A stretch of 64,000 nt of DNA. Source: Escherichia phage FV3. Positions within the stretch are counted from its first letter, which is position 1, and every line of letters begins with the position of its first letter. A program made the translations under genes and the position numbers. The stretch lies in sequence record NC_019517.1; one strand, written 5' to 3'. Under the pieces are notes generated by a model. The model ran no database searches. It saw only the letters and a list, made by a program, of their open reading frames with translations, and had not been told where the DNA came from. Below, one piece after another: positions 3,297-61,015 of the stretch.

Positions 3297-4280
3297 ATGA
3301 TGACAAAGTTAACTCTTGAGCAAATTTTAACACTAAAGCAACAGGGATACACCAATAGACAAATTGCTCGTGAATTTCTAGGTCGTGAGTCACGTGAGAG
3401 CTGGATCCGGCTACAGCTTAAACGTGCACAAGAGAATATGTCAGAGATTGTAGGAGAGGCAACGGAGCGCTTCCTTGAAGAACACAAAGGTGCTAAAGTT
3501 TGGGTGTATGATACAGAGACATCCCCAACAAACGGCTGGTTCTTTGGGCATTATAAGACCAACATTCAAACCTGCGGTATTGAAATTATGCCCTATATGC
3601 TAACTTTCGCAGGTAAATGGTTAGACAGCCCCAGTGTGGTTGACTGTGCTCTTCCTGATTACAAAATGTGGGGCGAGGATATCCACAACGATCTTGAGCT
3701 GATTCAAGATTTGTGGTATTATCTGGATAAATGTGATGTAGCAGTAGCACACAACTCTGGTTTTGACTGTGGGTGGGCCAACCAACGATTTGCATTTCAC
3801 GGTTTGCCGCCAACAAGCCCATACAAAGAGGTTGACACCCTCAAGATGATTAAAAAGGCATTCCGTTTGAATGCAAACACGTTAGAGTATGCATGTAAAT
3901 ACTTCCAACTGGCCCGACAGAAACTAATTGACCACACATTTGAAATGTGGATCAAGTGTGTTCATGGTGATCTTGAGGCGTTTAAACAGATGCGGGAGTA
4001 TAATGTTGGGGACATCTTGTCTCTGGAAGGCCTATATTTGCTGGCGCGTCCGTTTGCTAAGCAGCACCCCAACATGTCGTTGTACTACCAAGATGAGGAG
4101 TCAAAAGTTCGTTGCCCACGTTGTGGTGGAGAACACCTTCACGAGGAAGAGGCTTTGGCGTATACTCAACTGAGTGCATTTAAAACCTACCGCTGCGAAG
4201 GTTGTGGATCTGTTGTTCGTGATCGTAACAACATCCGTACCCGAGAAGAGATGAAAAACACCCTGATTCAGATAATCTGA
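3297..4280 (+). CDS. DnaQ-like 3'-5' exonuclease with N-terminal HTH and C-terminal zinc ribbon
   Basis: 327-aa ORF; HTH-like LKQQGYTNRQIAREF, exo motifs VYDTETS, AHNSGFDCGW, YNVGDIL, C-terminal CPRC...CEGC. Confidence 0.5.
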   Translation: MMTKLTLEQILTLKQQGYTNRQIAREFLGRESRESWIRLQLKRAQENMSEIVGEATERFLEEHKGAKVWVYDTETSPTNGWFFGHYKTNIQTCGIEIMPYMLTFAGKWLDSPSVVDCALPDYKMWGEDIHNDLELIQDLWYYLDKCDVAVAHNSGFDCGWANQRFAFHGLPPTSPYKEVDTLKMIKKAFRLNANTLEYACKYFQLARQKLIDHTFEMWIKCVHGDLEAFKQMREYNVGDILSLEGLYLLARPFAKQHPNMSLYYQDEESKVRCPRCGGEHLHEEEALAYTQLSAFKTYRCEGCGSVVRDRNNIRTREEMKNTLIQII

Positions 4281-4287
4281 CAAGTAG

Positions 4288-4310
4288 AGGGAGGCTTGCG
4301 CCTCCCTTTT
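4288..4310 (+). terminator. intrinsic terminator
   Basis: AGGGAGGC-TTGC-GCCTCCCT hairpin followed by TTTT. Confidence 0.5.
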
Positions 4311-4325
4311 CATTTTGGAGGCACC

Positions 4326-5132
4326 TTGAGCAAGAAAGAGTCCAACGACAAATATTACACAGACCCTGAGTATGCAGAATATCTTGTTGGTAAAGTAAAA
4401 GTTAGGTATGGGAATTGTGCATACGTTGAGCCTTCTGCTGGAAAGGGTTCTTTTTCAAAACTATTTTCAGAGATACTGTCGTACGATTTGGTACCAGATC
4501 CTGAATTTGAAGGCCCAACACCGTGTATTAAGGCAAACTTCTTAGAGGTGTACCCTAAGGCTGATGTCTTCATAGGTAATCCTCCATTCGGCAAAAATTC
4601 GTCTTTAGCTTGCAAGTTCTTTAACCACTGTGCATCATTGCTAGAGCCTGGCGGGGCTATAGCCTTCATCTTGCCACGGACATTTGAAAAAATATTTTTT
4701 GCAAACAAGCTGGACATGTCAATGCACCTTATCTACAGCGAAAGGTGCCCCAAGAACTCGTTTTTACTTAACGACAAACCTTATGACGTGCCATGTGTTT
4801 TCCAAATTTGGGAGAAAAAGGTGTGCAATAGGGATCCTGTAGAGATTGGGGAGAATAAGTTATTTTCTTTTAGCACACCAGATGACTACGACTTCTGCAT
4901 AAGACGTGTTGGGTATAATGCTGGAAAAGTATTGGGGGAGGATGACCCAAAATCTGAAGAATCAACATATTTCATAAAATCTTTAGTTGATGGTGTTGAC
5001 AGAGTGTTTGCTGAATGCTATTCTTCTTTTCAAGAAGAAGCAGGTAAGACTGCTGGAATGAAGAGTATAGGCAAGAAAGAACTACAATACATTTTGGAGA
5101 CTAGGTATGATCAAAAGTATAGACTTGACTAA
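4326..5132 (+). CDS. N6-adenine DNA methyltransferase (motif I then NPPF)
   Basis: EPSAGKGSF (motif I) and IGNPPFGK (motif IV); no in-frame ATG before the motifs, proposed TTG start at 4326 after GGAGG RBS. Confidence 0.6.
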   Translation: MSKKESNDKYYTDPEYAEYLVGKVKVRYGNCAYVEPSAGKGSFSKLFSEILSYDLVPDPEFEGPTPCIKANFLEVYPKADVFIGNPPFGKNSSLACKFFNHCASLLEPGGAIAFILPRTFEKIFFANKLDMSMHLIYSERCPKNSFLLNDKPYDVPCVFQIWEKKVCNRDPVEIGENKLFSFSTPDDYDFCIRRVGYNAGKVLGEDDPKSEESTYFIKSLVDGVDRVFAECYSSFQEEAGKTAGMKSIGKKELQYILETRYDQKYRLD

Positions 5133-30497: not shown

Positions 30498-30522
30498 CAA
30501 AATATCAAATTTAAGGCACCTA

Positions 30523-30548
30523 GGACGCTCTGTGGCGTCCTTTTCTTT
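30523..30548 (+). terminator. intrinsic terminator
   Basis: GGACGC-TCTGTG-GCGTCC followed by TTTTCTTT. Confidence 0.55.
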
Positions 30549-30710
30549 ATCTGGTGCACGATTGCATACCTTGGGTAGTTAATCTCATTACAGAGCGTTT
30601 AATAGCGGCCTGTAAACAGATCTCTATTTCGAGCGTAGCGAGAACGCACGTCCGTTTTGACCCAAATCACCATACGCTCGGATTTTAACCAAACCCTCGC
30701 GGCGTTTCTG

Positions 30711-30739
30711 TTGACACATTACCGCTCCTGTGATAGTAT
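30711..30739 (+). promoter_or_regulatory. sigma70-like promoter (TTGACA-17-TAGTAT)
   Basis: TTGACA 30711-30716, TAGTAT 30734-30739. Confidence 0.4.
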
Positions 30740-30857
30740 CCTCACATAGTTTGTAGAATATGAAATACGCAATGAAAACATTATCTGAGGTTTTAGTGGT
30801 GATCCTGATGATCATTACGTCCATAGCAGTTGTTGCCGGAATACTCACGGGTGGAAC

Positions 30858-31046
30858 ATGACCAACACACATGCACCTAAAGAGACATCTGAAGAAGCGA
30901 CTATAGAGAAAAACTTCAATTCTGAGGATTCTTTATCTCCGTCTCAGGTAGATCCTGAGGCTGATGACCTGACGTGGGAAGACATCGTAGACATCTGGTT
31001 CTCTATCATGCCTGAGCACGAAGAGTTCAGAGGTGGGAGACTATGA
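30858..31046 (+). CDS. hypothetical acidic protein
   Basis: 62-aa ORF. Confidence 0.4.
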   Translation: MTNTHAPKETSEEATIEKNFNSEDSLSPSQVDPEADDLTWEDIVDIWFSIMPEHEEFRGGRL

Positions 31047-31165
31047 AGCACCGAGCCCACATAAGTTTATCATGCTAAAGCATGGCCTGAAGAGGCAAAC
31101 GTGCATAATTCCAGTGCATTGGAACGTATAACCCTGTTCACACTCTCATTTCCAGAGGAGATTTT

Positions 31166-31381
31166 ATGAAGATAGAAATATTTGGTGGAGCTGACAACAC
31201 TCGTGGCCTGATTTACCTTGAATTCGATGAATCATACCTGCCAGAGGTGTTAAATATAGACTCTGTTGCTGAGGCTTTGGGAGTAAACCCTAAAGAACTC
31301 CACTCTTGTGCTGAGATCGATGGTTGGGAAGAGACCATGAACATTGATTTCAGTGAAGTAGAGGATGAACCGCTGGACTGA
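31166..31381 (+). CDS. small acidic protein, MKVK family
   Basis: 71 aa, MKIEIFGGADNT...; last rightward gene before strand switch. Confidence 0.5.
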   Translation: MKIEIFGGADNTRGLIYLEFDESYLPEVLNIDSVAEALGVNPKELHSCAEIDGWEETMNIDFSEVEDEPLD

Positions 31382-31593
31382 CACACAATTAGCTGCCCGG
31401 CTAAAGTGCTGGAAGCACCTATAACACATCTTTCAACTAAATTTCCTACCACCACAATCACTTACCTCCCACACATGACTGTTTGCTTGTTTAGTGAGCA
31501 GTCATTCCTTGACATTCTTGCCTATCCTGATAAAATTAAGTTCTTCTCTTTTCTTTTACCGAGTAATTCGGGTTTTCTGTTCTCTTCGGTTTG

Positions 31594-31810
31594 AAGGGGT
31601 ATGGAGATACACCTGAGTGAACAGGGTGAACAACCGAACCTTTAGCTATGGCATTAGCATGGCGAAGCGGACGGGTGACGAAAGAGGGGCCGGAGGACAC
31701 CAGTCACTGCCATATGGTATATGGGTGATAACCTGAAGAGTCTGAATAAGTGTTTAAGTACCAGTCAGAGGAAAAGGTGAATGGTAGCCGAAGGGGGAGG
31801 GGGGTTTCTT
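31594..31810. other. G/purine-rich non-coding segment, candidate structured RNA
   Basis: No ORF >=60 aa on either strand; composition unlike flanking AT-rich DNA; ends in G-run GGGGGAGGGGGG; strand undetermined. Confidence 0.3.
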
Positions 31811-32589
31811 GTATCTTTAATTTGTATACTTTATATACACTTGTAAACCAATTCAATTAGAATATGGATACCACACAAAGTGGATAGAGGCAAATATTCC
31901 CTATTAAACTTGAATTATTTATAGAAAATACCACAACACTGCTTAAGTCTTTGATTTTACACACAAATATTACAAATATCCTGCCTCTATATTTAACATA
32001 CCTGTAACATATTCCATACTCTCCCTGATTGATCAATTCCCCAACTACATCCCCATATTTTCCCTTCCTGTACTACCCCTGCCCCGCCGGGAGTCCCGTC
32101 ATATCTGGCTTTCCAGCAAATATCACACCCACAAATATCATTGCCTGAAGAGGGTTTCATCCCATAATACCTGCCTTACCCGAAGAGCGCTTCATACACC
32201 ACGTAAATTTTTTAATTGACCTGCAATTTTCCTGCAGACCCACCCCCTGCCCAGCCGGAGAGGTTGGCTTTTCCCACACAGGCCTGAAGAGTCAGCCAGA
32301 AATATCTGAAGGGGGTCCAGTTCTACCACGATTTTGACCTGACCTACAGGAGCGCTGCCAGGCGGACGAAATGGGAATACTTCTCATTCTTATAACAATT
32401 CTCAAATATCGGGGCAGTGAGGCAAATTAATAGGCGAGGCCGTTCACACAGTGGCACAACATTTGCAAGCTATTTTGCGGGGGTGAATGAGAATACCTAT
32501 CATTGTGAGAATAGTTATCATTACGGGCAATTTAACATAATACCCATTATGCGCACCACTGGCGATACATACAGGGATTGATAACATGG

Positions 32590-33230
32590 GTTACTGTTTA
32601 CGCATATAACAATTGTATTTCTTATTATTTGTGGGGGATATAGTTAGCAACCAATAGATTAGTTATTAACCTGCGGACTTCTGACCGTCTAGACGTCCAA
32701 ACGCCCACACCACAAGGATTATACATACACTCCTGCATGTAAACAGGGCCGCAAAAATGCTACCATACCAGTTTGTAAATTTTCCATGCAGCACTTGACA
32801 AAGAGGAGAAAAACTTGTCTGACACACTGGACACCTTATACACCTTATACACTTTCGATACAATAACGATTGTTATTATTTCATGTTTCACTGTTCACGT
32901 ATAGATTGTTCCTGCATAGACTGTTTACGCCTGGATAGTTTACACCTTGACAGTTTACGCAGATATGATAAGCCATGACATTCGTTTGCATAGTTGCCTT
33001 ATTGTTACAGGTAAAACAATTACATTGTTAACTATTTCTTATCTTTCTCTTAGTCATCTAATGATTCCAGTCAGTATAGTTATGTACAGTAAACATTAGA
33101 CGACTAAATATTTCTCTGATTATAGTAACCTATCGTGACAATTTCTAACTGTTTACGAAAAATGTTGACACCTGGGCAGGTTTATGTTATGCAGTTTGTA
33201 CGAATAATTATTTTGTACAGGTATTGACTA
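32590..33230. repeat. iteron-like degenerate direct repeats (TGTTTACGC family) in non-coding strand-switch region
   Basis: CTGTTTACGC / TGTTCACG / GTTTACAC / AGTTTACGC / TGTTTACG / GTTTGTACG copies, densest 32889-32960; AT-rich; no convincing ORFs. Confidence 0.4.
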
Positions 33231-33605
33231 TTCCGTTATTCTGTGGTTGGAATAAATACTTTGCAGGCTATAGAATGGTGATCGTACGTGGATTCTGAGA
33301 TCTGTCGGCTATAGTTACACCCGATTTTTCACGTAGGACACGCTTTTTGGTTTGTGTAAGTGTATGACTTATAAGGGTTTTTAATTGTTGACAGTATACT
33401 GAAGATGTGCATCAGGTTAAATTTTGTGCAATAGCTGCATTACGTGCAATTTTGGGAGAGAAAACGGGTAAAAATAGCACCGCTACCACACAATGAAAGG
33501 TTATGCAATAGCTATTTTACATGTATATTTGTACAGTGTGCGGGATTGATGGCTCGTCAATTATTCCACTTGTCAGGTAGGGCCGTTTATGGTAGGAAAA
33601 GAGCA

Positions 33606-33633
33606 GACAAAAAGAAAGGGGCCTAAGCCCCCT
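33606..33633 (-). terminator. intrinsic terminator (leftward transcripts)
   Basis: GGGGGC-TTA-GGCCCC hairpin followed by U-run on minus strand, just after stop of 33647..33910. Confidence 0.45.
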
Positions 33634-33646
33634 TGATAATGTTGTA

Positions 33647-34246: not shown

Positions 34247-34586
34247 GGCGTTTTCCTCTCTTCTGGTTGTTGTGTGGGCACTTTTGCCCCTTCAAGGTAA
34301 ATGCTACCCCACCACCCGGCAGATGTCAACGGTTTTTATAGTTTTTTATATAACGGGCACCCCTGGTGATTGTCTCCCCCCGTCGCCAGGTGCCGCCCGT
34401 GAAACAAGTATAACAAAAAACAGGACCATTGCAAGCCCTGTTTATTATCTTAAAACCAGGTGCCAACCGTTTCCAATAGATCACTGACTATCAGGACAAT
34501 ACTGATCAGCACATACCTAACCATAAAGGGAAAGATCGCCAACATTGCCGCCACGATCCCCATGGTGATAATTATCTTTCTCATGA

Positions 34587-35185: not shown

Positions 35186-35363
35186 CTTACCCGATACCGT
35201 GGGAAGATAGGATCATGTTAGCCATAGTTGCAACCACTCCAACCGATAATGCCATGCCAACTACTACAACCGTGAAAATTTTTTCTAACATGATTCCACC
35301 CTCATTAATGGGCGTTGCCTTATTGCCCCGCCCTATGTCGTACACTTTTCTTCTGATCCTCTG

Positions 35364-35627
35364 TTAGCATACGATAGCGATCACGCCGCCACAAATAAAA
35401 GGTAAATCAAAACTGTCTAACTTGCAAGCTATTTTTAAACGAAAGGCAACATAAAAGAAAAGTTGCAAACAATCGATCATTGTGTTAGCTGTTGAAACGC
35501 TGCCAGCATTAAACACCACCCCGCCCACGGCGTTAAACGTTGCGTTACTCACGAAAGTGAAAAGGCAAGCGATCACGGTGGCGATCATAATGTTGCGTTT
35601 TGTCAATCTGTAAATGATGTTTTTCAT
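35364..35627 (-). CDS. small membrane protein
   Basis: 87 aa, two hydrophobic segments. Confidence 0.45.
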   Translation of the reverse strand: MKNIIYRLTKRNIMIATVIACLFTFVSNATFNAVGGVVFNAGSVSTANTMIDCLQLFFYVAFRLKIACKLDSFDLPFICGGVIAIVC

Positions 35628-35696
35628 TCTGTCATGTTGGCGGCATCATTGCCGCCCTACGAAATACATTCTACCCGATTTGTAATTGTTGTCAAA

Positions 35697-35921
35697 CTAA
35701 TTTTTACAAGGGATCAGTAAACTTCTTGCTACTGCTTCGCGTAGTCCTTGACTTTTTATCAGATCTATTGTTGCAGGATGGCAAGTAAAAGCCTTTGACC
35801 ATTTTTGATCCCCTGGTTTACGGGCAAAAATGTAAACTTCCCCGTCGATTTCATCCCAACGAGTATTGCTTGTTAGTTTTTTAAGCGCCATGATGATTTC
35901 CCTTTTAGTTGTGAGCGGCAC
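35697..35921 (-). CDS. hypothetical protein
   Basis: 74-aa ORF. Confidence 0.45.
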   Translation of the reverse strand: MPLTTKREIIMALKKLTSNTRWDEIDGEVYIFARKPGDQKWSKAFTCHPATIDLIKSQGLREAVARSLLIPCKN

Positions 35922-35966
35922 TATTGCCGCCCTATGTGATACATCTTAAACTAATTTAAAACGTTG

Positions 35967-36200
35967 TCAACACTTTTCAAAAAATTTTTCTGCCGTGATA
36001 TTCTTCCCGGTAGGGTTCGCTACTTTCAAAATTTTATCATGCACTGGACGCCCAAAAGAATAAGCGCCGTACACAGTGCACCAATAATCGCCGTCAGGCT
36101 GTACTATTACCGCCGCATAGGGTACGCCTTTTTCGTTTTTGCTGACAAAATAGATCACATTGCCATTAATAGCCTCAGCGCGTTTAATTTGTTCCATCAT
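35967..36200 (-). CDS. hypothetical protein
   Basis: 77-aa ORF. Confidence 0.45.
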   Translation of the reverse strand: MMEQIKRAEAINGNVIYFVSKNEKGVPYAAVIVQPDGDYWCTVYGAYSFGRPVHDKILKVANPTGKNITAEKFFEKC

Positions 36201-36566: not shown

Positions 36567-36777
36567 CTATCCGGTTAATGATTGGGGGGCCGCCCCCCCT
36601 GGCACGTCCTATTATCCATATTGTAGGGCTTGATGCAAGTACTTCTTTAAAAATTTTTAAGCGCCTTGGGGGCCGCTGTAGCGCTAAAATAACAAAGGCC
36701 ATGCAACCGCATAGACTTTATGTGATTATGTCGCTGCAGGCCCCGCCACGGGCCTTATTTTGCATCATTTGCCGGAA

Positions 36778-37121: not shown

Positions 37122-37170
37122 TTTACTTTATTGATGGCCCTGGAGTCAAGGCCATCTAAAAATAAACTTT
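37122..37170 (-). promoter_or_regulatory. repeat copy 1 of 3: promoter-like element with -35 inside a palindrome
   Basis: On minus strand GATGGCC-TTGACTCCAG-GGCCATC then 17 nt then TAAA(C/T)T; ~47-bp core near-identical at 40841-40888 and 41463-41510. Confidence 0.5.
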
Positions 37171-37369
37171 ACAGGCCTACAATATCTTTAATTCGTTTTA
37201 CTGCTGCCTCAGCGCCTTGAGGGTAAAAATTATGGTAACCAATCACGCGGGTAATACTGATCGCCGCCTGATGATCTTCATAATACCCCTTGAATATTTC
37301 TTGACCATCAACCAGCACAGCAATTTTTTCTTCTTTTTTGAAGTTAATAACGCGGATATTGTTGCTCAT
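37169..37369 (-). CDS. hypothetical protein
   Basis: 66-aa ORF. Confidence 0.4.
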   Translation of the reverse strand: MSNNIRVINFKKEEKIAVLVDGQEIFKGYYEDHQAAISITRVIGYHNFYPQGAEAAVKRIKDIVGL

Positions 37370-37516
37370 TTTGTTTCTCCTTTTGGAACTTTGTCTGTGT
37401 GGTGGGGAGTGTCTCCCCGTTGATTGTTATTATCCATATTTTTGACCGGGTTGCAACACCCCGGAAGAAAAATTTTTTGAAAAAAGTTAGGCCCCCAGGG
37501 ATCGGGGGCCGTTATC

Positions 37517-38225: not shown

Positions 38226-38289
38226 TCTATGTACCTCTTTTACAGTTCTGATCAACAATAAGGCGGCAAATATGCCGCCTGTTACCTGA

Positions 38290-38670: not shown

Positions 38671-38758
38671 GATTTTATCCTCTTTGTTTTGTGTGGGGCA
38701 AGACGTTTGCCCCTTGAGTTTTAATATAGCAGGTTTTTAGATTATTGCAACACTTTAT

Positions 38759-39382
38759 TTATGAAAAACTCATCTCCCCATATTCATCCACATCAAACCT
38801 CCAATCATTGGCCTCAATAAGGCCGATCAGGTTTTCGGTAGTGAACTGTTCTAGATAGGCCTCCTCCAGGTCTACGTAAACCTTGCGGGATAGCTCCCGT
38901 ACCGTCTCGGTGATCAGCTCTTCCAGGTCTTCCACTTTGTTTTCTTGTTTAGCGGTCAGATCTAGCCATGTGGTATCAATGTACCCGCTTACAGTGTTTT
39001 CATGGCTGTAATGGCTGTACTTGTCGCGTTCAATACTGGCGGATAGTTCGCCATCGTGCATTGTGCCGAACAAGTGACGAATTGATCTGAACTTGGTCAG
39101 GGCCTTGACTTTACGCAAGAATTTTTCTAAGTCTACATTTTCAGCACTGATCGATGCGCCATCGCCTTGACACCAAAAGCCGGACCAATGTACTTCGGTA
39201 TCTTCAAGGCCGTACTCTGGAAAAACTTGTTCTTTATAGTATTCAATTACATTTTCTGCGAAAAAATCATCCCCGCTGCGTTCTTCTCTTTCGCGGACCA
39301 TTTCAATGGCTTTTTCTTTTTGTTCGTCGGTCAGCACGTCGAAAGATAAATTGTAACCTGTGGTAATGTTAACGGTGGTCAT
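38759..39382 (-). CDS. hypothetical acidic protein
   Basis: 207-aa ORF with HWSGFWCQGDGASI motif; family not recognised. Confidence 0.5.
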   Translation of the reverse strand: MTTVNITTGYNLSFDVLTDEQKEKAIEMVREREERSGDDFFAENVIEYYKEQVFPEYGLEDTEVHWSGFWCQGDGASISAENVDLEKFLRKVKALTKFRSIRHLFGTMHDGELSASIERDKYSHYSHENTVSGYIDTTWLDLTAKQENKVEDLEELITETVRELSRKVYVDLEEAYLEQFTTENLIGLIEANDWRFDVDEYGEMSFS

Positions 39383-39410
39383 GATATTTTCTCCTGTTTT
39401 CTTTGTTAGT

Positions 39411-39468
39411 GGCGGGAAGTTTTCCCGCCTATGTTTTTAATTATACTTATTGAGATCTACTTGTCAAC
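39411..39468 (-). promoter_or_regulatory. sigma70-like promoter (TTGACA-17-TATAAT) followed by GGCGGGAA/TTCCCGCC palindrome
   Basis: Minus-strand TTGACA (plus 39463-39468) and TATAAT (plus 39440-39445); perfect palindrome 39411-39429 between promoter and RBS. Confidence 0.5.
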
Positions 39469-39717
39469 ACTATTTTTTAAATTATTGTGGCGCAAAATGT
39501 TTAAAATCTCCTCAACGTCATCAACACGGCGGCAATTTTTAAACGCTACCAATTGCCCCATGATTTTAATCACTGGGCGGCCTTGCCAGTGCCCCTGAAG
39601 AAAGCGCGCCTTGACTTTATCGGTGGAACTATCACGCCACCAAATAGCCTTGTTGTTGCAGTAGTAAAAATTATTCAGGATAACATCAACTTTATCAAAA
39701 TTTTTTAATTTACGCAT
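39457..39717 (-). CDS. hypothetical protein
   Basis: 86-aa ORF. Confidence 0.45.
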   Translation of the reverse strand: MRKLKNFDKVDVILNNFYYCNNKAIWWRDSSTDKVKARFLQGHWQGRPVIKIMGQLVAFKNCRRVDDVEEILNILRHNNLKNSVDK

Positions 39718-39936
39718 GGCGTTTACTCCTTTCTCTCTTTGATGTGGTTAGTATAGCTAACCTGTTGACGATGTCAATGATATTTTTAACGCCATAAAAC
39801 GGCCCTAGGCGATGCTTTCAGGTTAAAGGGGGGCGATTGCATAGGTGGGGGCCTTTTTGGCGCTTACAGGGCCAACCAGGGGCGCTATTCGTAGGATAGA
39901 AATAAAAAGCCCCGCACAATGGCGGGGCGTTGGTTG

Positions 39937-40158
39937 TTATTTGTCTTTATGGCGGTATCGTTCTGCCTGTCGTTCACGTTCCAAAAGTAGGCCGGGCAAT
40001 TTACGATCATAATGATTCCGCCAGATCTTCCCAAACCTTTTTGGCTTATTCAGTTTATTGTTGCGCTGTCGGCGTTCTGGCAGCTCTTCGGAATCATGAG
40101 GGCGCTTTACAATTTTCTCGAAATTAATTTTCATATATTCCCCCCTTGCTAACTTCAA
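39937..40158 (-). CDS. small basic protein
   Basis: 73 aa, Arg/Lys-rich. Confidence 0.4.
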   Translation of the reverse strand: MKLARGEYMKINFEKIVKRPHDSEELPERRQRNNKLNKPKRFGKIWRNHYDRKLPGLLLERERQAERYRHKDK

Positions 40159-40477
40159 TATTGGCCTGAATAGCCCGGATACGGCGCTTTATAACTTCCT
40201 GATCTGTGTGGTCGTATCCCCAAAAGTCTACAATTTTTGCGCCCCCCGCCTCCAGGCGGTATAGTGTTTCCTGCATTTTGTAAGCCGGGATCGGTCGCGG
40301 TGTTACTTGGTCGCCTTCTTTATTTTTATACTTTATAATATAATCTTCGTTATCGTTGAATGTCCAAAATGGATATTCTGCAAGGGCGGTACTTCCTCTT
40401 TCCTTTTTATCCTGGATCTTGTTTACAATTAAAGCCGTAGCAATAGCGCCAATAATAAAACTAGCCCCGCTGATCAT
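40124..40477 (-). CDS. membrane-anchored protein
   Basis: 117 aa with N-terminal TM segment. Confidence 0.45.
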   Translation of the reverse strand: MISGASFIIGAIATALIVNKIQDKKERGSTALAEYPFWTFNDNEDYIIKYKNKEGDQVTPRPIPAYKMQETLYRLEAGGAKIVDFWGYDHTDQEVIKRRIRAIQANIEVSKGGIYEN

Positions 40478-40553
40478 GTGTACTTTCTCCTTTCATGGTG
40501 TTAATAAATTATCTTTATAGATGGCCCTGCAACCAGGACCACCGAAAAAATAA

Positions 40554-40799
40554 CTATTTCACAATGCCTACAAAACAGATCCCGCCTTCACCTATGTAAG
40601 CAATATCGGTAACTTTATAATTTGTCAAGATCTGCTTATTTAGTTCATTAATAAAATCGGTCATTGCGTTGGTGTAGTTGTCTTCCATGTCTAGGGAATA
40701 ATCCCAGGCGTAGACCTTTTTACGCCCGAAGCCTTTTACCATGATACGGGCGCTTTTGGTGTTGGTGGGCGCATAATATTTTGTGATTAGTGCTGCCAT
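40554..40799 (-). CDS. hypothetical protein
   Basis: 81-aa ORF; RBS GAGGAG. Confidence 0.5.
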   Translation of the reverse strand: MAALITKYYAPTNTKSARIMVKGFGRKKVYAWDYSLDMEDNYTNAMTDFINELNKQILTNYKVTDIAYIGEGGICFVGIVK

Positions 40800-40840
40800 G
40801 GGTTTTAACTCCTCATTAGTTCAGTGTTAACAGTGTAAAG

Positions 40841-40888
40841 TTTACTTTATTGATGGCCCTGGAGTCAAGGCCATCTAAAAATAAATTT
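40841..40888 (-). promoter_or_regulatory. repeat copy 2 of 3: promoter-like element with palindrome
   Basis: Near-identical to 37122-37170; immediately upstream of 40554..40799. Confidence 0.5.
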
Positions 40889-41229
40889 TACTCGTTTTCT
40901 TCCAGCTCTGAAAGCTCTTCTTTCACTTCTTCCAGCTCTGTCTGCAATTCCTGGTATTCTTCATCGTCCTCAATATCCAGGCTGTCGATGTAGTCGCTAA
41001 ATCCGCAGCGGTAAGCGATAGGATCTAACTCCTTGAGGATACGCGACGGAAGAAAAGAAATGTTTCCGATCATAATTTCGCCGTAGATCTCGTCTAGCCA
41101 TTCATCATAGTTTTCGTCGTACTTGTCCTCGTCGATTTCAAAGTTATCGATCTTGTTCTCAAGGTCTGCGATCTGTTTTTTCAGCGCGGCGATCTGCATA
41201 GCTTTTTCTGCGGCGGTCATAGTAGTCAT
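40888..41229 (-). CDS. hypothetical acidic coiled-coil protein
   Basis: 113-aa ORF; RBS AAAAGGAGAAAA. Confidence 0.5.
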   Translation of the reverse strand: MTTMTAAEKAMQIAALKKQIADLENKIDNFEIDEDKYDENYDEWLDEIYGEIMIGNISFLPSRILKELDPIAYRCGFSDYIDSLDIEDDEEYQELQTELEEVKEELSELEENE

Positions 41230-41253
41230 GGTGTTTTCTCCTTTTTTGTGTTT

Positions 41254-41308
41254 TGGGAAGTTTTCCCGTTTACGTGTTTAAGTATACCGATTTAGGTTAG
41301 CTTGTCAA
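41254..41308 (-). promoter_or_regulatory. sigma70-like promoter (TTGACA-16-TATACT) followed by GGGAA/TTCCC palindrome
   Basis: Minus-strand TTGACA (plus 41303-41308), TATACT (plus 41281-41286); palindrome GGGAAGTTTTCCC 41254-41266. Confidence 0.45.
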
Positions 41309-41428
41309 TTAAAAATTTAAGAAAAATTTTGCAAAACTGTTGGCGCTACTCATTAACATTTGCGCCAGGATGTAACCGACAACGCAAACGATAATAGTTA
41401 CCTTTGTGTATTGGCGTGTAGTGCTCAT
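41309..41428 (-). CDS. micro-ORF encoding 39-aa hydrophobic peptide
   Basis: ATG at 41428 after AAGGGGG RBS; downstream of repeat copy 3. Confidence 0.35.
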   Translation of the reverse strand: MSTTRQYTKVTIIVCVVGYILAQMLMSSANSFAKFFLNF

Positions 41429-41462
41429 CTTAAAGCCCCCTTTTTCGCTTAGTTGAGACTAG

Positions 41463-41510
41463 TTTACTTTATTGATGGCCCTGGAGTCAAGGCCATCTAA
41501 AAATAAACTT
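41463..41510 (-). promoter_or_regulatory. repeat copy 3 of 3: promoter-like element with palindrome
   Basis: Near-identical to 37122-37170. Confidence 0.5.
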
Positions 41511-41913
41511 AATAAGTTTTCAGTACTTTCCCGTCCAACCTGTCAAGCTGGATCTCGATAGCTGCAGAAAATCTATTGTACACCACGTCGCCCATAGAAT
41601 CCAACCAATCTATGACGTTATATACCTGCTCTTTATTCTTACAGGTCCGGATCCGTTTCATGATGTAAGCCGGATCAATATTGGTACTCTCGTTGGTGTT
41701 CCCCTGTACCTGGTTTGCCGTATTAGTTACATCTTTAATGGCCTTTACCACCACCTGGAATGGCTTTAAGGTGCCTTTTGCGTTCATCTCACGCGCTTTT
41801 GCGGCGCGGTTGTTGTATGTTACACAACGGCGGCAAATGTTGATCAAATGCATGTCAATAATTTTTTCATCGTTTGCCAGCTCGTTCATGATGCGGCGTA
41901 CGTTCTTATTCAT
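41509..41913 (-). CDS. hypothetical protein
   Basis: 134-aa ORF. Confidence 0.5.
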   Translation of the reverse strand: MNKNVRRIMNELANDEKIIDMHLINICRRCVTYNNRAAKAREMNAKGTLKPFQVVVKAIKDVTNTANQVQGNTNESTNIDPAYIMKRIRTCKNKEQVYNVIDWLDSMGDVVYNRFSAAIEIQLDRLDGKVLKTY

Positions 41914-41933
41914 GATCTTTTTCCTTTATGTTG

Positions 41934-41989
41934 GCGGGAAACATTCCCGCCTTTTGTGCCCAGTTTACTTGAATTTTGCAGCGTGTCAA
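41934..41989 (-). promoter_or_regulatory. promoter-like element (TTGACA-..-TAAACT) followed by GGCGGGAA/TTCCCGCC palindrome
   Basis: Palindrome GGCGGGAAACATTCCCGCC 41934-41952; minus-strand TTGACA at plus 41984-41989. Confidence 0.4.
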
Positions 41990-41995
41990 CAATTT

Positions 41996-42394
41996 TTATT
42001 CGTGGGCGCATGTTACAATGTGCTTTTTATAGCCCAGGCGGTCAGCAAGTGCCGCCAAAAACTCTTCTTCGTAGATCCAGCCGTCGGCAGTGATCCCCAT
42101 AGCATTTAATGCGCTCTCAAGTGCTGCGTTGGCTTTATCATAACCGTGACCGCTCGCCTTGCCGCCAGTATAGCCGTACTTATTGTTCTTGTTGTCGTGT
42201 ATCCAAAAAACGCAGTAGTAAGTGTTCCCGCTGGCGGCGGCATAATACCGGATCTCAGCTACTTCGTGCAAATTATTGTCATCGTCCAGGCCCACCAGAT
42301 TATAGGCCTTGTAAAATCCACGATCACGGCGGCAGTTCTTGACATCAGAAAAAGAAAAGTCCGCATTATCAAAATTAAAGGTGGTGGTTTTCAT
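41996..42394 (-). CDS. hypothetical protein
   Basis: 132-aa ORF. Confidence 0.5.
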   Translation of the reverse strand: MKTTTFNFDNADFSFSDVKNCRRDRGFYKAYNLVGLDDDNNLHEVAEIRYYAAASGNTYYCVFWIHDNKNNKYGYTGGKASGHGYDKANAALESALNAMGITADGWIYEEEFLAALADRLGYKKHIVTCAHE

Positions 42395-43399: not shown

Positions 43400-43600
43400 T
43401 TAAAAATCCATTTCTGAAAACGAAAAATCGCTTTCGTTCCCAAAAATTTTAGATCTGGTGCTGGACCAATTTCAAGAAAATCCGATTCAGAAAACGAAAA
43501 ACAGATCGAGTACCGAAAAATTTATCGAGAAAAATTTTCAGAAAATCCAATCTTTGAAATGAAAAACAGATCGAGTACTGAGAGAGATGTATCAAAACTT
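43400..43600. repeat. tandem imperfect direct repeats (~65-75 bp period, three copies)
   Basis: Units begin AAAATCC(A/G)(T/A)T..GAAA(A/T)(C/G)GAAAAA; two units also share CAGATCGAGTAC; further AAATCCATTTT motifs at 43750-43860. Confidence 0.45.
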
Positions 43601-47382: not shown

Positions 47383-47411
47383 CAAAAATGCCCCACCCTT
47401 TCGGGCAGGGC
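47383..47411 (-). terminator. intrinsic terminator after SSB-like gene (repeat of 58383-58410)
   Basis: Minus-strand GCCCTGCCC-GAAA-GGGTGGGGC hairpin followed by U-run. Confidence 0.5.
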
Positions 47412-58382: not shown

Positions 58383-58410
58383 CAAAAAGCCCCACCCTTT
58401 CGGGCAGGGC
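58383..58410 (-). terminator. intrinsic terminator (repeat of 47383-47411)
   Basis: Same GCCCTGCCC-GAAA-GGGTGGGGC hairpin plus U-run, after stop of 58417..58899. Confidence 0.5.
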
Positions 58411-58416
58411 CTAGTG

Positions 58417-58899
58417 TTAAACCCGGATACCTATTGTATACTCAGTAGATACCAATGTCAAATCTAAATTTAAAATTTCTTGCATCTCATAGTATGCGTC
58501 CAGGGTGAGATACATTTCCCCATCCTTTTCCACATACTTGTCAAGGTGTTTGAGGCACTTTGGATAACTATCAAGAGCCGCCTTTAAGCACTCAAACTCT
58601 GTGCTGTTGATAAATCCTTCCATCTTGGCTACCCGTTCTGGGGTAACGATAGCACTGTAGTGAGATTTAGCTTCCTGAATGCAATGGGTCCAAGCATCGA
58701 CTTTCTCTTCGAAAAGTCCGAAGAACTTCTTCTTGGTGAGCTTCAGATTCTTTAAGTGCTTAAGCACTCGGTTGCCGATCACAGACACATCACGAAACTT
58801 AAGGATCACTTTGTCAATATCCTCGCGGCCTATTTTCACAAAGCAAGCCTCACACATTTCAGGAGAGGCATAGCCTACCTTCCACATAAAATCTGACAT
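58417..58899 (-). CDS. hypothetical protein
   Basis: 160-aa ORF. Confidence 0.5.
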   Translation of the reverse strand: MSDFMWKVGYASPEMCEACFVKIGREDIDKVILKFRDVSVIGNRVLKHLKNLKLTKKKFFGLFEEKVDAWTHCIQEAKSHYSAIVTPERVAKMEGFINSTEFECLKAALDSYPKCLKHLDKYVEKDGEMYLTLDAYYEMQEILNLDLTLVSTEYTIGIRV

Positions 58900-59310: not shown

Positions 59311-59612
59311 TAGAAGCCCCCTACTTCTTCAGCAAATGCTGCTGCTGTTGTCGCTGCATCCAGATATGATTCTAATTCACGGGCTGCACGTTTGTAAATC
59401 GAGTGTCGCAGATTGTTTGGTAGTTGATGAAAGTCCACCTCTTCTCCGTTGTGGTAGACATGTAAATCGGTAATTTGTCTAAATCCATAATAATCAACAT
59501 CAGAATCACGGCACTCCGGATCTGGCAACTGGACAACTGCCTGAGCCTCTACAGTGAGCATATCGTCAAGTTCGAAATCGATTTCAAAAGTGTATGGTTT
59601 ATAACGCTTCAT
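59310..59612 (-). CDS. hypothetical protein
   Basis: 100-aa ORF. Confidence 0.5.
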   Translation of the reverse strand: MKRYKPYTFEIDFELDDMLTVEAQAVVQLPDPECRDSDVDYYGFRQITDLHVYHNGEEVDFHQLPNNLRHSIYKRAARELESYLDAATTAAAFAEEVGGF

Positions 59613-59671
59613 TATTCGGTGTTCTCCTTATCTTGTGTGGAGAGTAGACCTCCCCTTCAATGTTTTAAATA

Positions 59672-61015
59672 TTACTCTAAATCTTCTTCTGAGTCAAACT
59701 TATCTTTCACAACCAAGTTCGGGGCAAGTTTATAATAGCGAAAGCCCCCGCCACCGTGCCAGTTTACAGATTTAGAAATACCACTTTGATCTTCGCCATC
59801 GATCACTTTTTGCAAGCGCGGGATGATATGGGTATGACAATGATCACCTAGCTCGACCGAAATCCAACGTCTTTTCATCTTGTGAGCTACAGCAGCAGTA
59901 GTTCCTGAACCGCCGAACGAATCCAAGACTAAATCCCCTTCTCGCGTACACATTTCGAAAATCCGCTTTAAAAGCGCTTCGGGTTTTTTCCCATTTTTGA
60001 AACTAACGCCTCCTTCATTTGCTATTCCATTCCAACTAATGTCAGTCCAAACATCAGTTATTAGTTCAGCAGGCTGCATCTCACCGTCAATTTCCAAAAG
60101 CCTATTAGAGTAAAATACCATTTGCCTGCCATTTACAATATAAAAGCCTTCGACATCCTCATTTGGATGTACATAAACCTTATCCCTATCTTTCTTTGAC
60201 TTCTCGATAGTTTCTTTTCTCTTTATCTTAGCACCACCGCCAATTGCAACGGATTGAAATACACGTTCTGCATTATCAATTGCAAATTGTGCTAATTCAT
60301 CATCAAATGTATCAGGCAGTTTTTTCTTGGCCTCTTTTGTATCTTTATAGCCATTGGCCTTTGCAAACGCATCGGCAATACCGCACCACGTCCAACTTTT
60401 ATAATGGTCATCCGGGTTTAATAGATATTTGTTATATCCCGTATCATATCCTTTAGGTATATAGATTTTGTTAAGCGGCTTCTTGGTACGATCTTTTGCA
60501 TATACAAGCAAAAAGTTTGCTGTGGAGAAAACTGTAGTTCCTGTTGCCTTAAAGCCCGAAGGACAGTTTGTGGTCATCGATATGGTATTTAACTGATTTG
60601 CACGACCAAAAATCTCGTCCATCAAAACTTTTAAATAAGCCATTTCGCAGTCATCTAAGTGAACAAATATTACTCCATCATCGCTTAGCAGATTACGAAT
60701 TATTTCTAACCTGTCCCGCATTAAGCCCAGCCAAATGGAGTGCTCCAGGCTATCATCGTAGTGCTCAAAATCCCTTCCGGTATTGAATGGCGGGTCTATG
60801 TAAACACACTTCACTTTGCCTGCATACTCTTGCTCTAGTGCCTTCAATGCCAGTAAGTTATCGCCAAAAATCAGTTTATTATCAAAAATATCGTTTTCGG
60901 TCACCTTTTTACTGGCGTGATAAGACTTGCTCGTGTCTTCTAACAAAATGCACGGATCTAACTTTTTTCGCTCGTTTTTGCCTGTCCAGGTAAGCTCTAA
61001 TTTGGTTTTGCTCAT
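59672..61015 (-). CDS. DNA methyltransferase, N6-adenine/N4-cytosine beta class (Type III Mod-like)
   Basis: LIFGDNLLALKAL, VKCVYIDPPFNTG (DPPF), C-terminal VLDSFGGSGTT (motif I); ATG at 61015 after GGGGAGAG RBS. Confidence 0.7.
   Translation of the reverse strand: MSKTKLELTWTGKNERKKLDPCILLEDTSKSYHASKKVTENDIFDNKLIFGDNLLALKALEQEYAGKVKCVYIDPPFNTGRDFEHYDDSLEHSIWLGLMRDRLEIIRNLLSDDGVIFVHLDDCEMAYLKVLMDEIFGRANQLNTISMTTNCPSGFKATGTTVFSTANFLLVYAKDRTKKPLNKIYIPKGYDTGYNKYLLNPDDHYKSWTWCGIADAFAKANGYKDTKEAKKKLPDTFDDELAQFAIDNAERVFQSVAIGGGAKIKRKETIEKSKKDRDKVYVHPNEDVEGFYIVNGRQMVFYSNRLLEIDGEMQPAELITDVWTDISWNGIANEGGVSFKNGKKPEALLKRIFEMCTREGDLVLDSFGGSGTTAAVAHKMKRRWISVELGDHCHTHIIPRLQKVIDGEDQSGISKSVNWHGGGGFRYYKLAPNLVVKDKFDSEEDLE

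Follow-up and report, generated by a model that had tools for sequence, protein, structure and literature searches.

The 64,000-nt stretch of Escherichia phage FV3 analyzed here (NC_019517.1; hereafter the window, whose positions serve as coordinates throughout) carries short GC-rich inverted repeats between the promoters and the ribosome-binding sites of small leftward early genes. On balance, and with little more than even confidence, we read these repeats as the stem-loop module of a repeated early cassette of the promoter early stem-loop (PeSL) type, in which the hairpin would serve as a 5'-terminal mRNA stem-loop, as a read-through barrier or attenuator, and as homology for exchange. The cassettes share one anatomy, recur within the window, hold the hairpin at a fixed position relative to the -10 box, occur in several phage lineages, and coincide with the junctions at which genomes differ. 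A preliminary description of this DNA had picked out three of the repeats as palindromes; what it missed is that they are one module of a repeated, horizontally exchanged PeSL-type cassette of promoter, hairpin, and ribosome-binding site. The observation itself is real and non-random, as the pattern GGGAANNNTTCCC (GGGAA-N3-TTCCC) is found three times in the window against 0.04 expected, and none of 100 shuffles reached three.

The part of the window that holds the three repeats (38700-42000) is 90 to 97.6% identical to 121 phage records, nearly all of them rV5-like Vequintavirus coliphages, and judged by this similarity the FV3 window is that of an rV5-like Vequintavirus of Escherichia coli. 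The annotated relatives EdH4 and rV5 have in the same part an unbroken row of small leftward genes labeled hypothetical (open reading frames (ORFs) 164-238 in rV5). For all nine cassette-driven genes checked, the only PHROG matches were to families of unknown function, and a Pfam search with the nine gave no match above threshold.

Ten cassettes lie on the minus strand of the window, with -35 boxes at 34329, 35695, 35970, 36638, 37456, 38750, 39467, 41308, 41989, and 59697. In the order of transcription, a cassette begins with an AT-rich stretch and a promoter, whose TTGACA-like -35 box is separated from the -10 box by 16 bp in most cases; after a further 9 to 13 nt come a GC hairpin (G-rich in its 5' arm), a leader rich in A/C and poor in U, a Shine-Dalgarno (SD) sequence, and a start codon. 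As in PeSLs, the promoters have the form TTGACA-16/17-TAnnnT (10-12/12 consensus positions) and are preceded by AAAAATAGTG, AAATTTTTAA, or ATAAAAATTG. Likewise, an SD and an ATG follow 11 to 34 nt past the hairpin, the gene products are 64 to 207 aa long, and indels cluster at 33.6-36.8 kb. The promoters at 39467, 41308, and 41989 are homologs of P185, P192, and P194, which had already been predicted for rV5, and the cassette hairpins are not included in the terminator list of the rV5 paper.

The three cassettes that contain the repeats first noted illustrate this anatomy. Cassette M39467 (39380-39467) has its -35 box TTGACA at 39467-39462 and its -10 box TATAAT at 39445-39440, followed by a 10-nt gap (TAAAAACATA), the hairpin (39429-39411), an A/C-rich leader, the SD AGGAG (39395-39391), and the ATG at 39382, and it drives a 207-aa gene of unknown function (38759-39382). 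The hairpin, GGCGGGAA-AAC-UUCCCGCC, has 8 bp and a 3-nt loop (-14.6 kcal/mol, z = -3.8 in the predicted 5' untranslated region (UTR)), and the sense strand continues with ACUAACAA, which is no U-tract. Cassette M41989 (41911-41989) drives a 134-aa gene (41509-41913) and is laid out in the same way, with the -35 box at 41989-41984, the -10 box TAAACT at 41967-41962, a 10-nt gap (GGGCACAAAA), the hairpin at 41951-41933 (GGCGGGAA-UGU-UUCCCGCC, 8 bp, -14.6 kcal/mol, z = -3.5), the SD AAGGA at 41926-41922, and the ATG at 41913. Cassette M41308 (41227-41308) drives a 113-aa gene (40888-41229) and comprises a -35 box at 41308-41303, a -10 box TATACT at 41286-41281, a 13-nt gap, a weak hairpin at 41267-41255, the SD AGGAG at 41242-41238, and the ATG at 41229. 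Its hairpin, GGGAA-AAC-UUCCC, has 5 bp and about -4 to -5.5 kcal/mol (centroid -5.5, z = -0.7), is equally weak in the 8 of 8 relatives checked, and looks like a decayed copy of the GGCGGGAA hairpin. M39467 and M41308 are paralogs, 78-79% identical over about 93 nt from the -35 box to the ATG.

Most of what the preliminary description had said about the layout holds. The repeat GGCGGGAAGTTTTCCCGCC lies exactly at 39411-39429, while GGGAAGTTTTCCC and GGCGGGAAACATTCCCGCC are present but shifted by one position, at 41255-41267 instead of 41254-41266 and at 41933-41951 instead of 41934-41952. They are not perfect palindromes but inverted repeats with an asymmetric 3-nt center and arms of 8, 5, and 8 bp (at 39411, 41255, and 41933). 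Each is preceded by the promised minus-strand promoter (39467-39440, TTGACA-16-TATAAT, 12/12; 41308-41281, TTGACA-16-TATACT, 11/12; 41989-41962, TTGACA-16-TAAACT, 10/12) and followed, 19 to 28 nt on, by an SD and an ATG. Similar repeats do precede other leftward genes, at 38695-38713, 37404-37418, and 35639-35656, which is 6 to 15 nt away from where they had been placed, and further cassette hairpins lie at 35913-35932, 36584-36599, 34276-34289, and 59639-59655.

In folds of the predicted 5' UTRs, the hairpin is the dominant structure, with z scores of -3.2 to -3.8 in six of the ten; the 41255 hairpin and three others are weak or compositionally trivial. As in the Gn-loop-Cn elements of PeSLs, stabilities are substantial, at -8 to -13 kcal/mol in seven of the ten window cassettes, and are weaker at 34329 (-6.8), at 41308 (about -4), and at 36640 (z = -0.2). 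The SD is unpaired in nine of the ten folds, and translational repression was rejected as a role on this ground. The argument is weaker for M37456 (folded as 37355-37422), in which both the minimum free energy and the centroid structure pair UUCC with GGAG and the core of the AAGGAG site is predicted to be sequestered.

The position of the hairpin is narrowly set. Across 23 cassettes from four phage genomes, it starts 10.8 ± 1.3 nt past the -10 box (range 9-14), and the distance to the ATG is 22 ± 3.9 nt. When modules were defined strictly (a promoter of at least 10/12, an SD, and an ORF of at least 30 codons), a hairpin of -6 kcal/mol or stronger was found 9-14 nt past the -10 box in 4 of 13 window modules, against 0.4% for shuffled downstream sequence. 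The same census returned 8/14 for phage KKE7M, 5/10 and 4/5 for two jumbo phages, and 1/23 for RB49. In addition, 21 of 25 cassettes have a pyrimidine at 7 and a purine at 8 nt past the -10 box, purines make up 78% of the predicted positions +1 to +14 in these 25, and 24 of the 25, which are pooled from the four phage genomes, have a G-rich 5' arm. On the sense strand, the 8 nt after the stem contain a mean of 1.26 U (range 0-3; 23 cassettes).

With a hairpin start 9-13 nt past the -10 box, at about +3 to +7 from the inferred start, the geometry agrees with the proposal that the repeats form a 5'-proximal hairpin, though not on every transcript as had been proposed. About half of the consensus early promoters have none (39777, 42455, 42738, 45261, 45715, 50389, 50727, and 51589), and a similar fraction lacks it in each lineage. 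Several hairpin-less early promoters, at 39777, 42455, and 45261 in the window and at L009:2116 and L011:474 and 3322 in jumbo phages, resemble exact hairpin deletions (…ACATCAA|CTAC… versus …ACATCAAG[hairpin]ACTAAC…).

The preliminary description had further noted a T-run after each repeat on the plus strand and had suggested that the repeats are intrinsic terminators against rightward read-through into the leftward early operons. The run is present at 41952, which starts TTTTGTGCCC, is shifted by 4 nt at 39430 (TATGTTTTTA), and is absent at 41268 (GTTTACGTGTTT). A lenient scan does rate 39411, 41933, 38695, and 37400 as terminator-like on the plus strand, TTTT adjoins the stem at 41933-41951, and the rV5 paper expected a bidirectional terminator where plus- and minus-strand units converge and did not find one there. 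However, 41933-41951 is the sole cassette hairpin with T's adjoining the stem on that strand, the 23 cassettes average 3.2 T in the plus-strand 8-nt tail, and most have no run (CTACGAAATAC, CTATGTGATAC, TGGCACGTCC, CTTCAAGGTAA). The T-richness at 39430 and 41952 is the complement of the A-rich initial transcribed region of the minus-strand promoter. Nor is there an obvious source of rightward transcripts: relatives have no annotated plus-strand gene across the region, plus-strand promoter-like sites reach at most 10/12, 33.6-64 kb is without plus-strand genes or strong plus-strand promoters, and the convergence of the units (~30.5-33.6 kb) lies 6-8 kb off, followed by several other hairpins. 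The G-first polarity on the minus strand (24/25) also argues for selection on that strand. We therefore do not retain rightward termination as a general role and regard antisense terminators as highly improbable.

A sense-strand role in termination has to be weighed against the true terminators of the region. Within 33.6-42 kb, which holds 17 of the 40 strong hairpins of the window, there are two classes, namely terminators with a U-tract on the sense strand and promoter-proximal hairpins without one. Both have a GC-rich stem of 5-9 bp, a loop of 3-5 nt, and a location in an intergenic spacer; the intrinsic terminators differ in the U-tract directly after the hairpin, which the cassette hairpins do not have. 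On the minus strand, the terminators lie at 37490-37510 (rV5 t181; GGCCCCCGAUCCCUGGGGGCC then UAACUUUUUU on the sense strand) and, in the same class, at 33616-33634, 36699-36714, 38261-38280, and 39909-39928. Those at 33634, 36714, 37510, and 38280 match entries t164, t177, t181, and t184 of the rV5 terminator table, in which no entry was found for 39928. Three cassettes share their spacer with such a separate upstream element: 37456 (37510-37490), 36640 (36714-36699), and 34329 (a terminator-like hairpin at 34443-34418).

The cassette hairpin could nevertheless be a sense-strand terminator or attenuator, the role assigned to PeSLs, which would curb transcription from upstream cassettes and partly from its own strong promoter, so that the genes are insulated and not over-expressed. 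When a PeSL stem-loop was cloned between a promoter and lacZ, expression fell about as much as with the rrnB T1 terminator, and native PeSL promoters were too strong for cloning (PMC2839356). The EdH4 homolog of 41933-41951 is annotated as a putative terminator, in six of the nine cassettes in 34-42 kb the hairpin is the only structure that separates the stop codon upstream from the gene that follows, and the Gn-loop-Cn polarity is the same as that of RB49 PeSLs. Against this, the leaders are A/C-rich, with the low U content given above, and the three cassettes just named already have a terminator, or a terminator-like hairpin with a T-rich tail, upstream in the spacer. Moreover, the hairpin lies beyond the cassette's own start, whereas RB49 stem-loops are mostly in the promoter and those of PST just upstream of it; efficient termination would thus silence a gene that has a consensus promoter and a strong SD. 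The missing U-tract, the position past the start, and the coexistence of true terminators together argue, as far as sequence features can, against efficient sense-strand termination, and we consider this explanation possible but rather unlikely.

Cassettes of the same design are not confined to Vequintavirus. A BLAST search with one cassette matched Justusliebigvirus KKE7M (Stephanstirmvirinae) and a 348-kb jumbo phage, and both loci are rows of small unknown genes. Eleven of 18 promoters in KKE7M have a hairpin stronger than -6 kcal/mol that starts 9-14 nt past the -10 box (e.g., GGCGGGAAATGGTTTCCCGCC, several times), and the typical cassette of two jumbo phages reads TTGCAA/TTGACA-16-TATAAT, then GTTTTACATCAAG, then GGGGAGAAATGGTTCTCCCC. 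Many Justusliebigvirus and Phapecoctavirus records hold similar cassettes at 3-7 sites per genome, and a Pectobacterium Certrevirus holds two; some of the cassettes in phi92-like phages, jumbo coliphages, and this Certrevirus are near-identical. The lineages that share the cassette come from distinct subfamilies or genera, with almost no DNA similarity detectable between their early regions apart from the cassettes. A degenerate pattern of promoter plus GGCGGGAA returned at least 120 loci from IMG/VR, roughly the chance number estimated by hand, and only the multi-hit contigs L031, L066, L068, and L079 look real. As for RB49, no homolog of a 90-aa gene was among the matches listed at E <= 1e-5, and blastn of the window directly against the hyperplastic region of RB49 gave only one unrelated 200-nt match.

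One shared unit is delimited to the promoter box. The 469 bp at 40841-41309 are 96.8% identical to positions 4010-4477 of KKE7M (L010, PQ356295) and comprise a promoter, the weak hairpin, the 113-aa gene, and the next promoter element. Because identity begins at the -35 box of M41308 and stops at the -10 box of a 63-nt promoter element, exactly one gene with flanking promoter pieces is shared, which indicates a probable recent transfer of a cassette between families. A second segment, 35649-35970, is unique to the window among the Vequintavirus genomes and is 87% identical to KKE7M; the M35970 cassette and its gene are 87-90% identical to that phage.

Repeats and junctions within the window lead to the same elements. 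Direct-repeat analysis recovers dispersed cassette families. The 63-nt element, on the minus strand, is found at 37122-37184, where the -35 box TTGACT lies within the loop of a GATGGCC/GGCCATC hairpin and is followed by the -10 box TAAATT; at 40841-40903, where it forms the downstream junction of the KKE7M-shared unit and homology stops at its -10 box; and at 41463-41525, the -10 box being TAAACT or TAAATT across copies. Repeat comparison gave a degenerate fourth copy at 40509-40571. A 35-nt core is identical in the three copies (0 expected), and the element is 98% identical in KKE7M. A 1.6-kb size difference seen in megablast was discarded as an artefact, since the 63-nt repeat had joined separate pieces.

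Two further cassettes are repeats of each other. M35970 (35889-35970) consists of TTGACA-16-TAAGAT, the gap GTATCACATA, a hairpin at 35932-35913 (GGGCGGCA-AUAG-UGCCGCUC), and the ATG at 35891 of a 64-aa gene, and M35695 (35625-35695) of TTGACA-16-TAGAAT and a hairpin at 35656-35639 (GGCGGCA-AUGA-UGCCGCC). M35695 repeats M35970 in the same orientation at a distance of 275 bp (72% identity over 61 nt), and the 64-aa gene is thus bracketed by two cassettes. Large differences from relatives concentrate at 33.6-36.8 kb, 39.76 kb, and 42.8 kb. Compared with all eight Vequintavirus genomes examined, 35242-35965 is replaced, with 722 nt here and 388-805 nt there. Homology to these genomes stops at 35965 in the TTGACA that is the -35 box of M35970, and beyond it the relatives have another -10 box, another hairpin (GGGGGCAACAAGCCCC, again 11 nt past the -10 box), and another gene. 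In phage MiataMamis, 587 nt are inserted at 39772, and both junctions have TTGACA. As described for PeSLs, indel and replacement junctions fall at TTGACA (35965 and 39772) and the KKE7M-shared unit ends in -35 and -10 boxes, a coincidence to be read with the caveat that the intergenic spacers are made up almost wholly of cassette elements.

Relatives preserve the structure while changing parts of it. The two 8-bp stems (39411 and 41933) are nearly invariant across the eight Vequintavirus genomes. M38750 (38668-38750; TTGCAA-16-TATATT, hairpin 38713-38695 GGGGCAA-ACGUC-UUGCCCC, ATG 38670) has a stem that is remodeled among relatives, GGGGCAA/TTGCCCC versus GGGGCGAG/CTTGCCCC, and another stem is G6/C6 versus GGGGGC/GCCTCC. 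The loop of M38750 (38695-38713; orthologs L001-L008) is found in both orientations, ACGTC and GACGT, within an identical stem, which suggests inversion of the palindrome center or template switching. In the relative L008, the hairpin of M34329 (34244-34329; rV5 P168; TTGACA-17-TAGCAT, hairpin 34289-34276 GGGCA-AAAG-UGCCC, GTG 34246) is swapped for an M38750-type hairpin. An IMG/VR search for orthologs with the exact M38750 flanks returned 0 matches. This variation lends modest support to conservation of structure, short of formal covariation proof. Formal covariation on paralogous cassettes was avoided as circular, since the cassettes were chosen for their hairpins, and orthologs at 90-97% identity offer few informative changes. 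Rfam 15 gave no match for the whole window at gathering thresholds and, for 33.5-42.5 kb at E <= 1, one chance-level match (E = 0.21).

These exchanges raise the question of whether the hairpin has an RNA function at all, or persists as part of a mobile or recombinogenic cassette in which it provides exchange homology or a crossover site. The junctions of indels and of inter-lineage transfer inside cassettes, the hairpin replacement in L008, the inverted loop of M38750, and the absence of the hairpin from about half of the promoters would all fit, and in RB49 one mini-circle crossover was mapped within the loop of a stem-loop (PMC2839356). All resolved junctions, however, lie in -35 or -10 boxes and none in a hairpin, non-homologous cassettes keep a differing hairpin at the same offset, and the G-first polarity (24/25) with the U-poor flank points to strand-specific selection. 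We judge a hairpin without RNA function improbable.

Conservation of the stem also bears on a possible trans-acting factor, for which the hairpin would be a DNA operator for early shut-off or an RNA tag like lambda boxB or HK022 put, serving antitermination, stabilization, or timed destruction. Stem and apex are conserved beyond structural need, as Vequintavirus, Justusliebigvirus, Phapecoctavirus, Certrevirus, and jumbo phages share GGCGGGAA(A)-loop-(T)TTCCCGCC and GAAATGGTTC; the candidate sequence for a specific binder, as RNA or DNA, would be GGCGGGAAAUGGUUUCCCGCC. The site falls at +3 to +22, where operators are classically found, and like nut/boxB and put it would be an RNA hairpin just past an early promoter. 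Lambda nut requires boxA and the N protein, and HK022 put is a two-stem RNA of ~70 nt; neither a boxA-like partner nor a two-stem put-like fold was seen in the FV3 cassettes, and Rfam had no match. Within one genome, at least five unrelated stems are found at this position, loops are variable or inverted, and the sequence identity is also explained by recent cassette transfer between lineages otherwise almost without DNA similarity. A dedicated binding site is accordingly, in our estimate, distinctly improbable. In a bolder form of this idea, the hairpin would be a sequence-specific tag (GGSGGGRAA-loop-TTYCCCSCC, apex GAAAUGGUUC) common to at least four large virulent enterobacterial phage lineages and read by a shared host or phage factor, or else the crossover site of a dedicated cross-family exchange. 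Such a tag could mark early transcripts, for example, for antitermination, for timed shut-off, or for selective protection during a phage-driven boost of RNase E attack on host mRNA; we give this proposal little weight.

The nearest known system is that of the PeSLs. In RB49 and phi1, these combine an AT-rich region and a sigma-70-like early promoter with a Gn-loop-Cn stem-loop and an SD/ATG (Arbiol et al. 2010, PMC2839356). Placed on either side of orphan genes in hyperplastic regions, they mediate shuffling and give rise to mini-circles (PMC2839356; see also Comeau et al. 2014, PMC4122927). The FV3 cassettes share with the PeSLs of RB49/phi1, PST, and nt-1 (PMC2839356, PMC4122927) the AT-rich upstream stretch, the near-consensus sigma-70 promoter ('GTTGACA'), the Gn-loop-Cn hairpin, the SD and ATG of a small orphan gene, the many dispersed copies in the most variable early region, and the indel and replacement junctions within cassettes. 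The 63-nt repeat, with its -35 box in a hairpin loop, matches a described PeSL subclass whose stem-loop overlaps the -35 box. The FV3 cassettes differ in where the hairpin stands: PeSL stem-loops precede the transcription start, being upstream of, within, or just after the promoter, whereas FV3 hairpins lie 9-13 nt past the -10 box, beyond the predicted +1. Read directly, the RB49 hyperplastic region has the stem-loop mostly inside the promoter (e.g., TTGACA-GGGGATCACGTATCCCC-TATACT) or over the -10 box, and in PST it is just upstream of the promoter (PMC4122927). The described host range of PeSLs is T4-like myoviruses, and literature searches found no description of them outside this group, whereas FV3 belongs to the Vequintavirinae and shares its design with Stephanstirmvirinae and jumbo coliphages. 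Since the window is that of a Vequintavirus, we call the cassettes PeSL-like and not members of the class as originally defined. A PeSL-like cassette that occurs beyond the T4-like phages and whose hairpin is predicted to be transcribed is new; every component was already known separately.

If the hairpin is a 5'-terminal stem-loop, as we favor, host RNA polymerase would start 7-8 nt past the -10 box, at the conserved pyrimidine-purine step, and promoter geometry predicts that the hairpin would be transcribed with a single-stranded 5' overhang of 2-6 nt. Because it follows the predicted start site, the hairpin should head the cassette's own mRNA. There it would make the 5' end less accessible to RppH and to the 5' sensor of RNase E while leaving the ribosome site free, and early mRNAs would become longer-lived. 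On read-through RNA from an upstream cassette, the same hairpin would lie just past the stop codon and might be a 3' decay barrier or a weak attenuator, and the conserved 60-90 nt of the cassette would offer homology for insertion, deletion, and inter-phage exchange of gene cassettes. Secondary structure at the 5' end stabilizes E. coli mRNA, and RppH and RNase E need single-stranded 5' ends (PMC3997798). In T4 infection, host mRNA decays faster in an RNase E/G-dependent way (PMC3014915). A T4 Srd homolog, gp11, is reported for rV5 (rV5 paper), and together these make a need to shield phage mRNAs plausible.

Known 5'-terminal stabilizers, those in the 5' UTRs of ompA and papA (cited in PMC3997798 from Emory, Bouvet and Belasco 1992) and in the leader of T4 gene 32, are likewise described as simple hairpins in which sequence matters little, located within a few nucleotides of the 5' end and upstream of an accessible ribosome site, and expected to hinder RppH and 5'-end-dependent RNase E. 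The varied cassette stems fit this rule, since the structure is kept while the sequence changes between cassettes (GGCGGGAA, GGCGGCA, GGGGCAA, GGGGAG, G7). Emory et al. are reported to have found stabilization when the stem-loop lay within a few nucleotides, about 2-4, of the 5' terminus of the mRNA. The FV3 5' end differs in being a predicted one, with a borderline overhang of 2-6 nt, and the known stabilizers are features of single genes, unlike the repeated mobile module on about ten short mRNAs described here. Morons (Hendrix et al.) are also self-contained promoter-gene(-terminator) units added to phage genomes, but they have no conserved flanking cassette as the exchange vehicle.

Several points weigh against the stabilizing role. 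[quoted passage not shown] RNase E also readily scans past a simple stem-loop (PMC9943677), so that any protection must come from the short overhang, which fits the tight spacing. The lacZ assay described above, the one experiment on the nearest known family, showed that a cloned PeSL stem-loop reduces expression as a strong terminator does. The hairpin is evidently dispensable, since about half of the equally strong early promoters lack one, and that at 41255 is indistinguishable from shuffled sequence. Single stem-breaking substitutions without compensation occur at M39467 (L007, L003) and at M34329 (L003/L004). A wobble-pair strand test on 38 distinct hairpins gave 8 G.U pairs on the sense strand versus 4 A.C, no significant strand bias, so the test decides neither between the RNA strands nor against a DNA role. 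The regular spacing could come from shared ancestry and cassette compaction, as the distance to the ATG is also fairly constant. Finally, literature searches for Vequintavirus, phi92-like, and PBECO4-like phages returned neither a transcriptome nor a map of transcription starts.

Should the stem-loop reading be right, unrelated large virulent coliphages share a plug-in expression unit, made of a strong host-type promoter, a 5' hairpin, and a ribosome site, for orphan early genes. This would explain how genes move between families with their expression signals intact, would extend the PeSL idea past the T4-like phages, and would provide a natural case in which serial 5' stem-loops influence what becomes of mRNAs while the host is being taken over. 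Annotations that name cassette hairpins terminators may then be wrong, and the cassettes could serve as compact expression parts for engineering.

Two other candidate roles were dismissed. Hairpin promoters of the N4 type do not fit a consensus sigma-70 promoter directly upstream, and we know of no virion RNA polymerase in the rV5-like group. As RNase III sites, stems of 5-9 bp are, on general grounds, far too short.

The remaining cassettes of the window, all on the minus strand, follow the same plan. M37456 (37367-37456), downstream of terminator t181, has TTGCAA-16-GATAAT, a hairpin at 37418-37404 (GGGGAG-ACA-CUCCCC), and its ATG at 37369. M36640 (36549-36638) has TTGCAT-16-GATAAT, with the -10 box at 36616-36611 and a hairpin at 36599-36584 (G7-CGG-C6). 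The outlying cassette at 59610-59697 combines TTGACT-17-TAATAT with a hairpin at 59655-59639 (GGGGAG-GUCUA-CUCUCC, one G.U pair) and an ATG at 59612.

Other structures near early promoters were observed in passing. On the minus strand at 58384-58461, the promoter TTGACA-17-TACAAT (rV5 P231) is followed, about 21 nt past the -10 box and before the next SD, by a strong terminator, GGCCCTGCCCGAAAGGGTGGGGCT then TTTTT (rV5 t232), an arrangement that could yield a ~48-nt RNA or act as an attenuator; a twin of its hairpin lies at 47390-47411. By coordinate mapping, ~30500-33600 corresponds to the 'non-coding' region of the rV5 map between the converging plus- and minus-strand units. It has no Rfam match at gathering thresholds and contains plus-strand promoter-like sites at 30711 and 31509 (TTGACA-16-TAAAAT with TG) and a local repeat (33419-33454 / 33496-33531). 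At 43410-43475 on the minus strand, a promoter-like TTGAAA-18-TAAAAT is directly followed by a long AT-rich hairpin of 17 pairs, AUUUUUGGGAACGAAAGCGAUUUUUCGUUUUCAGAAAU, unlike the GC hairpins of the cassettes.

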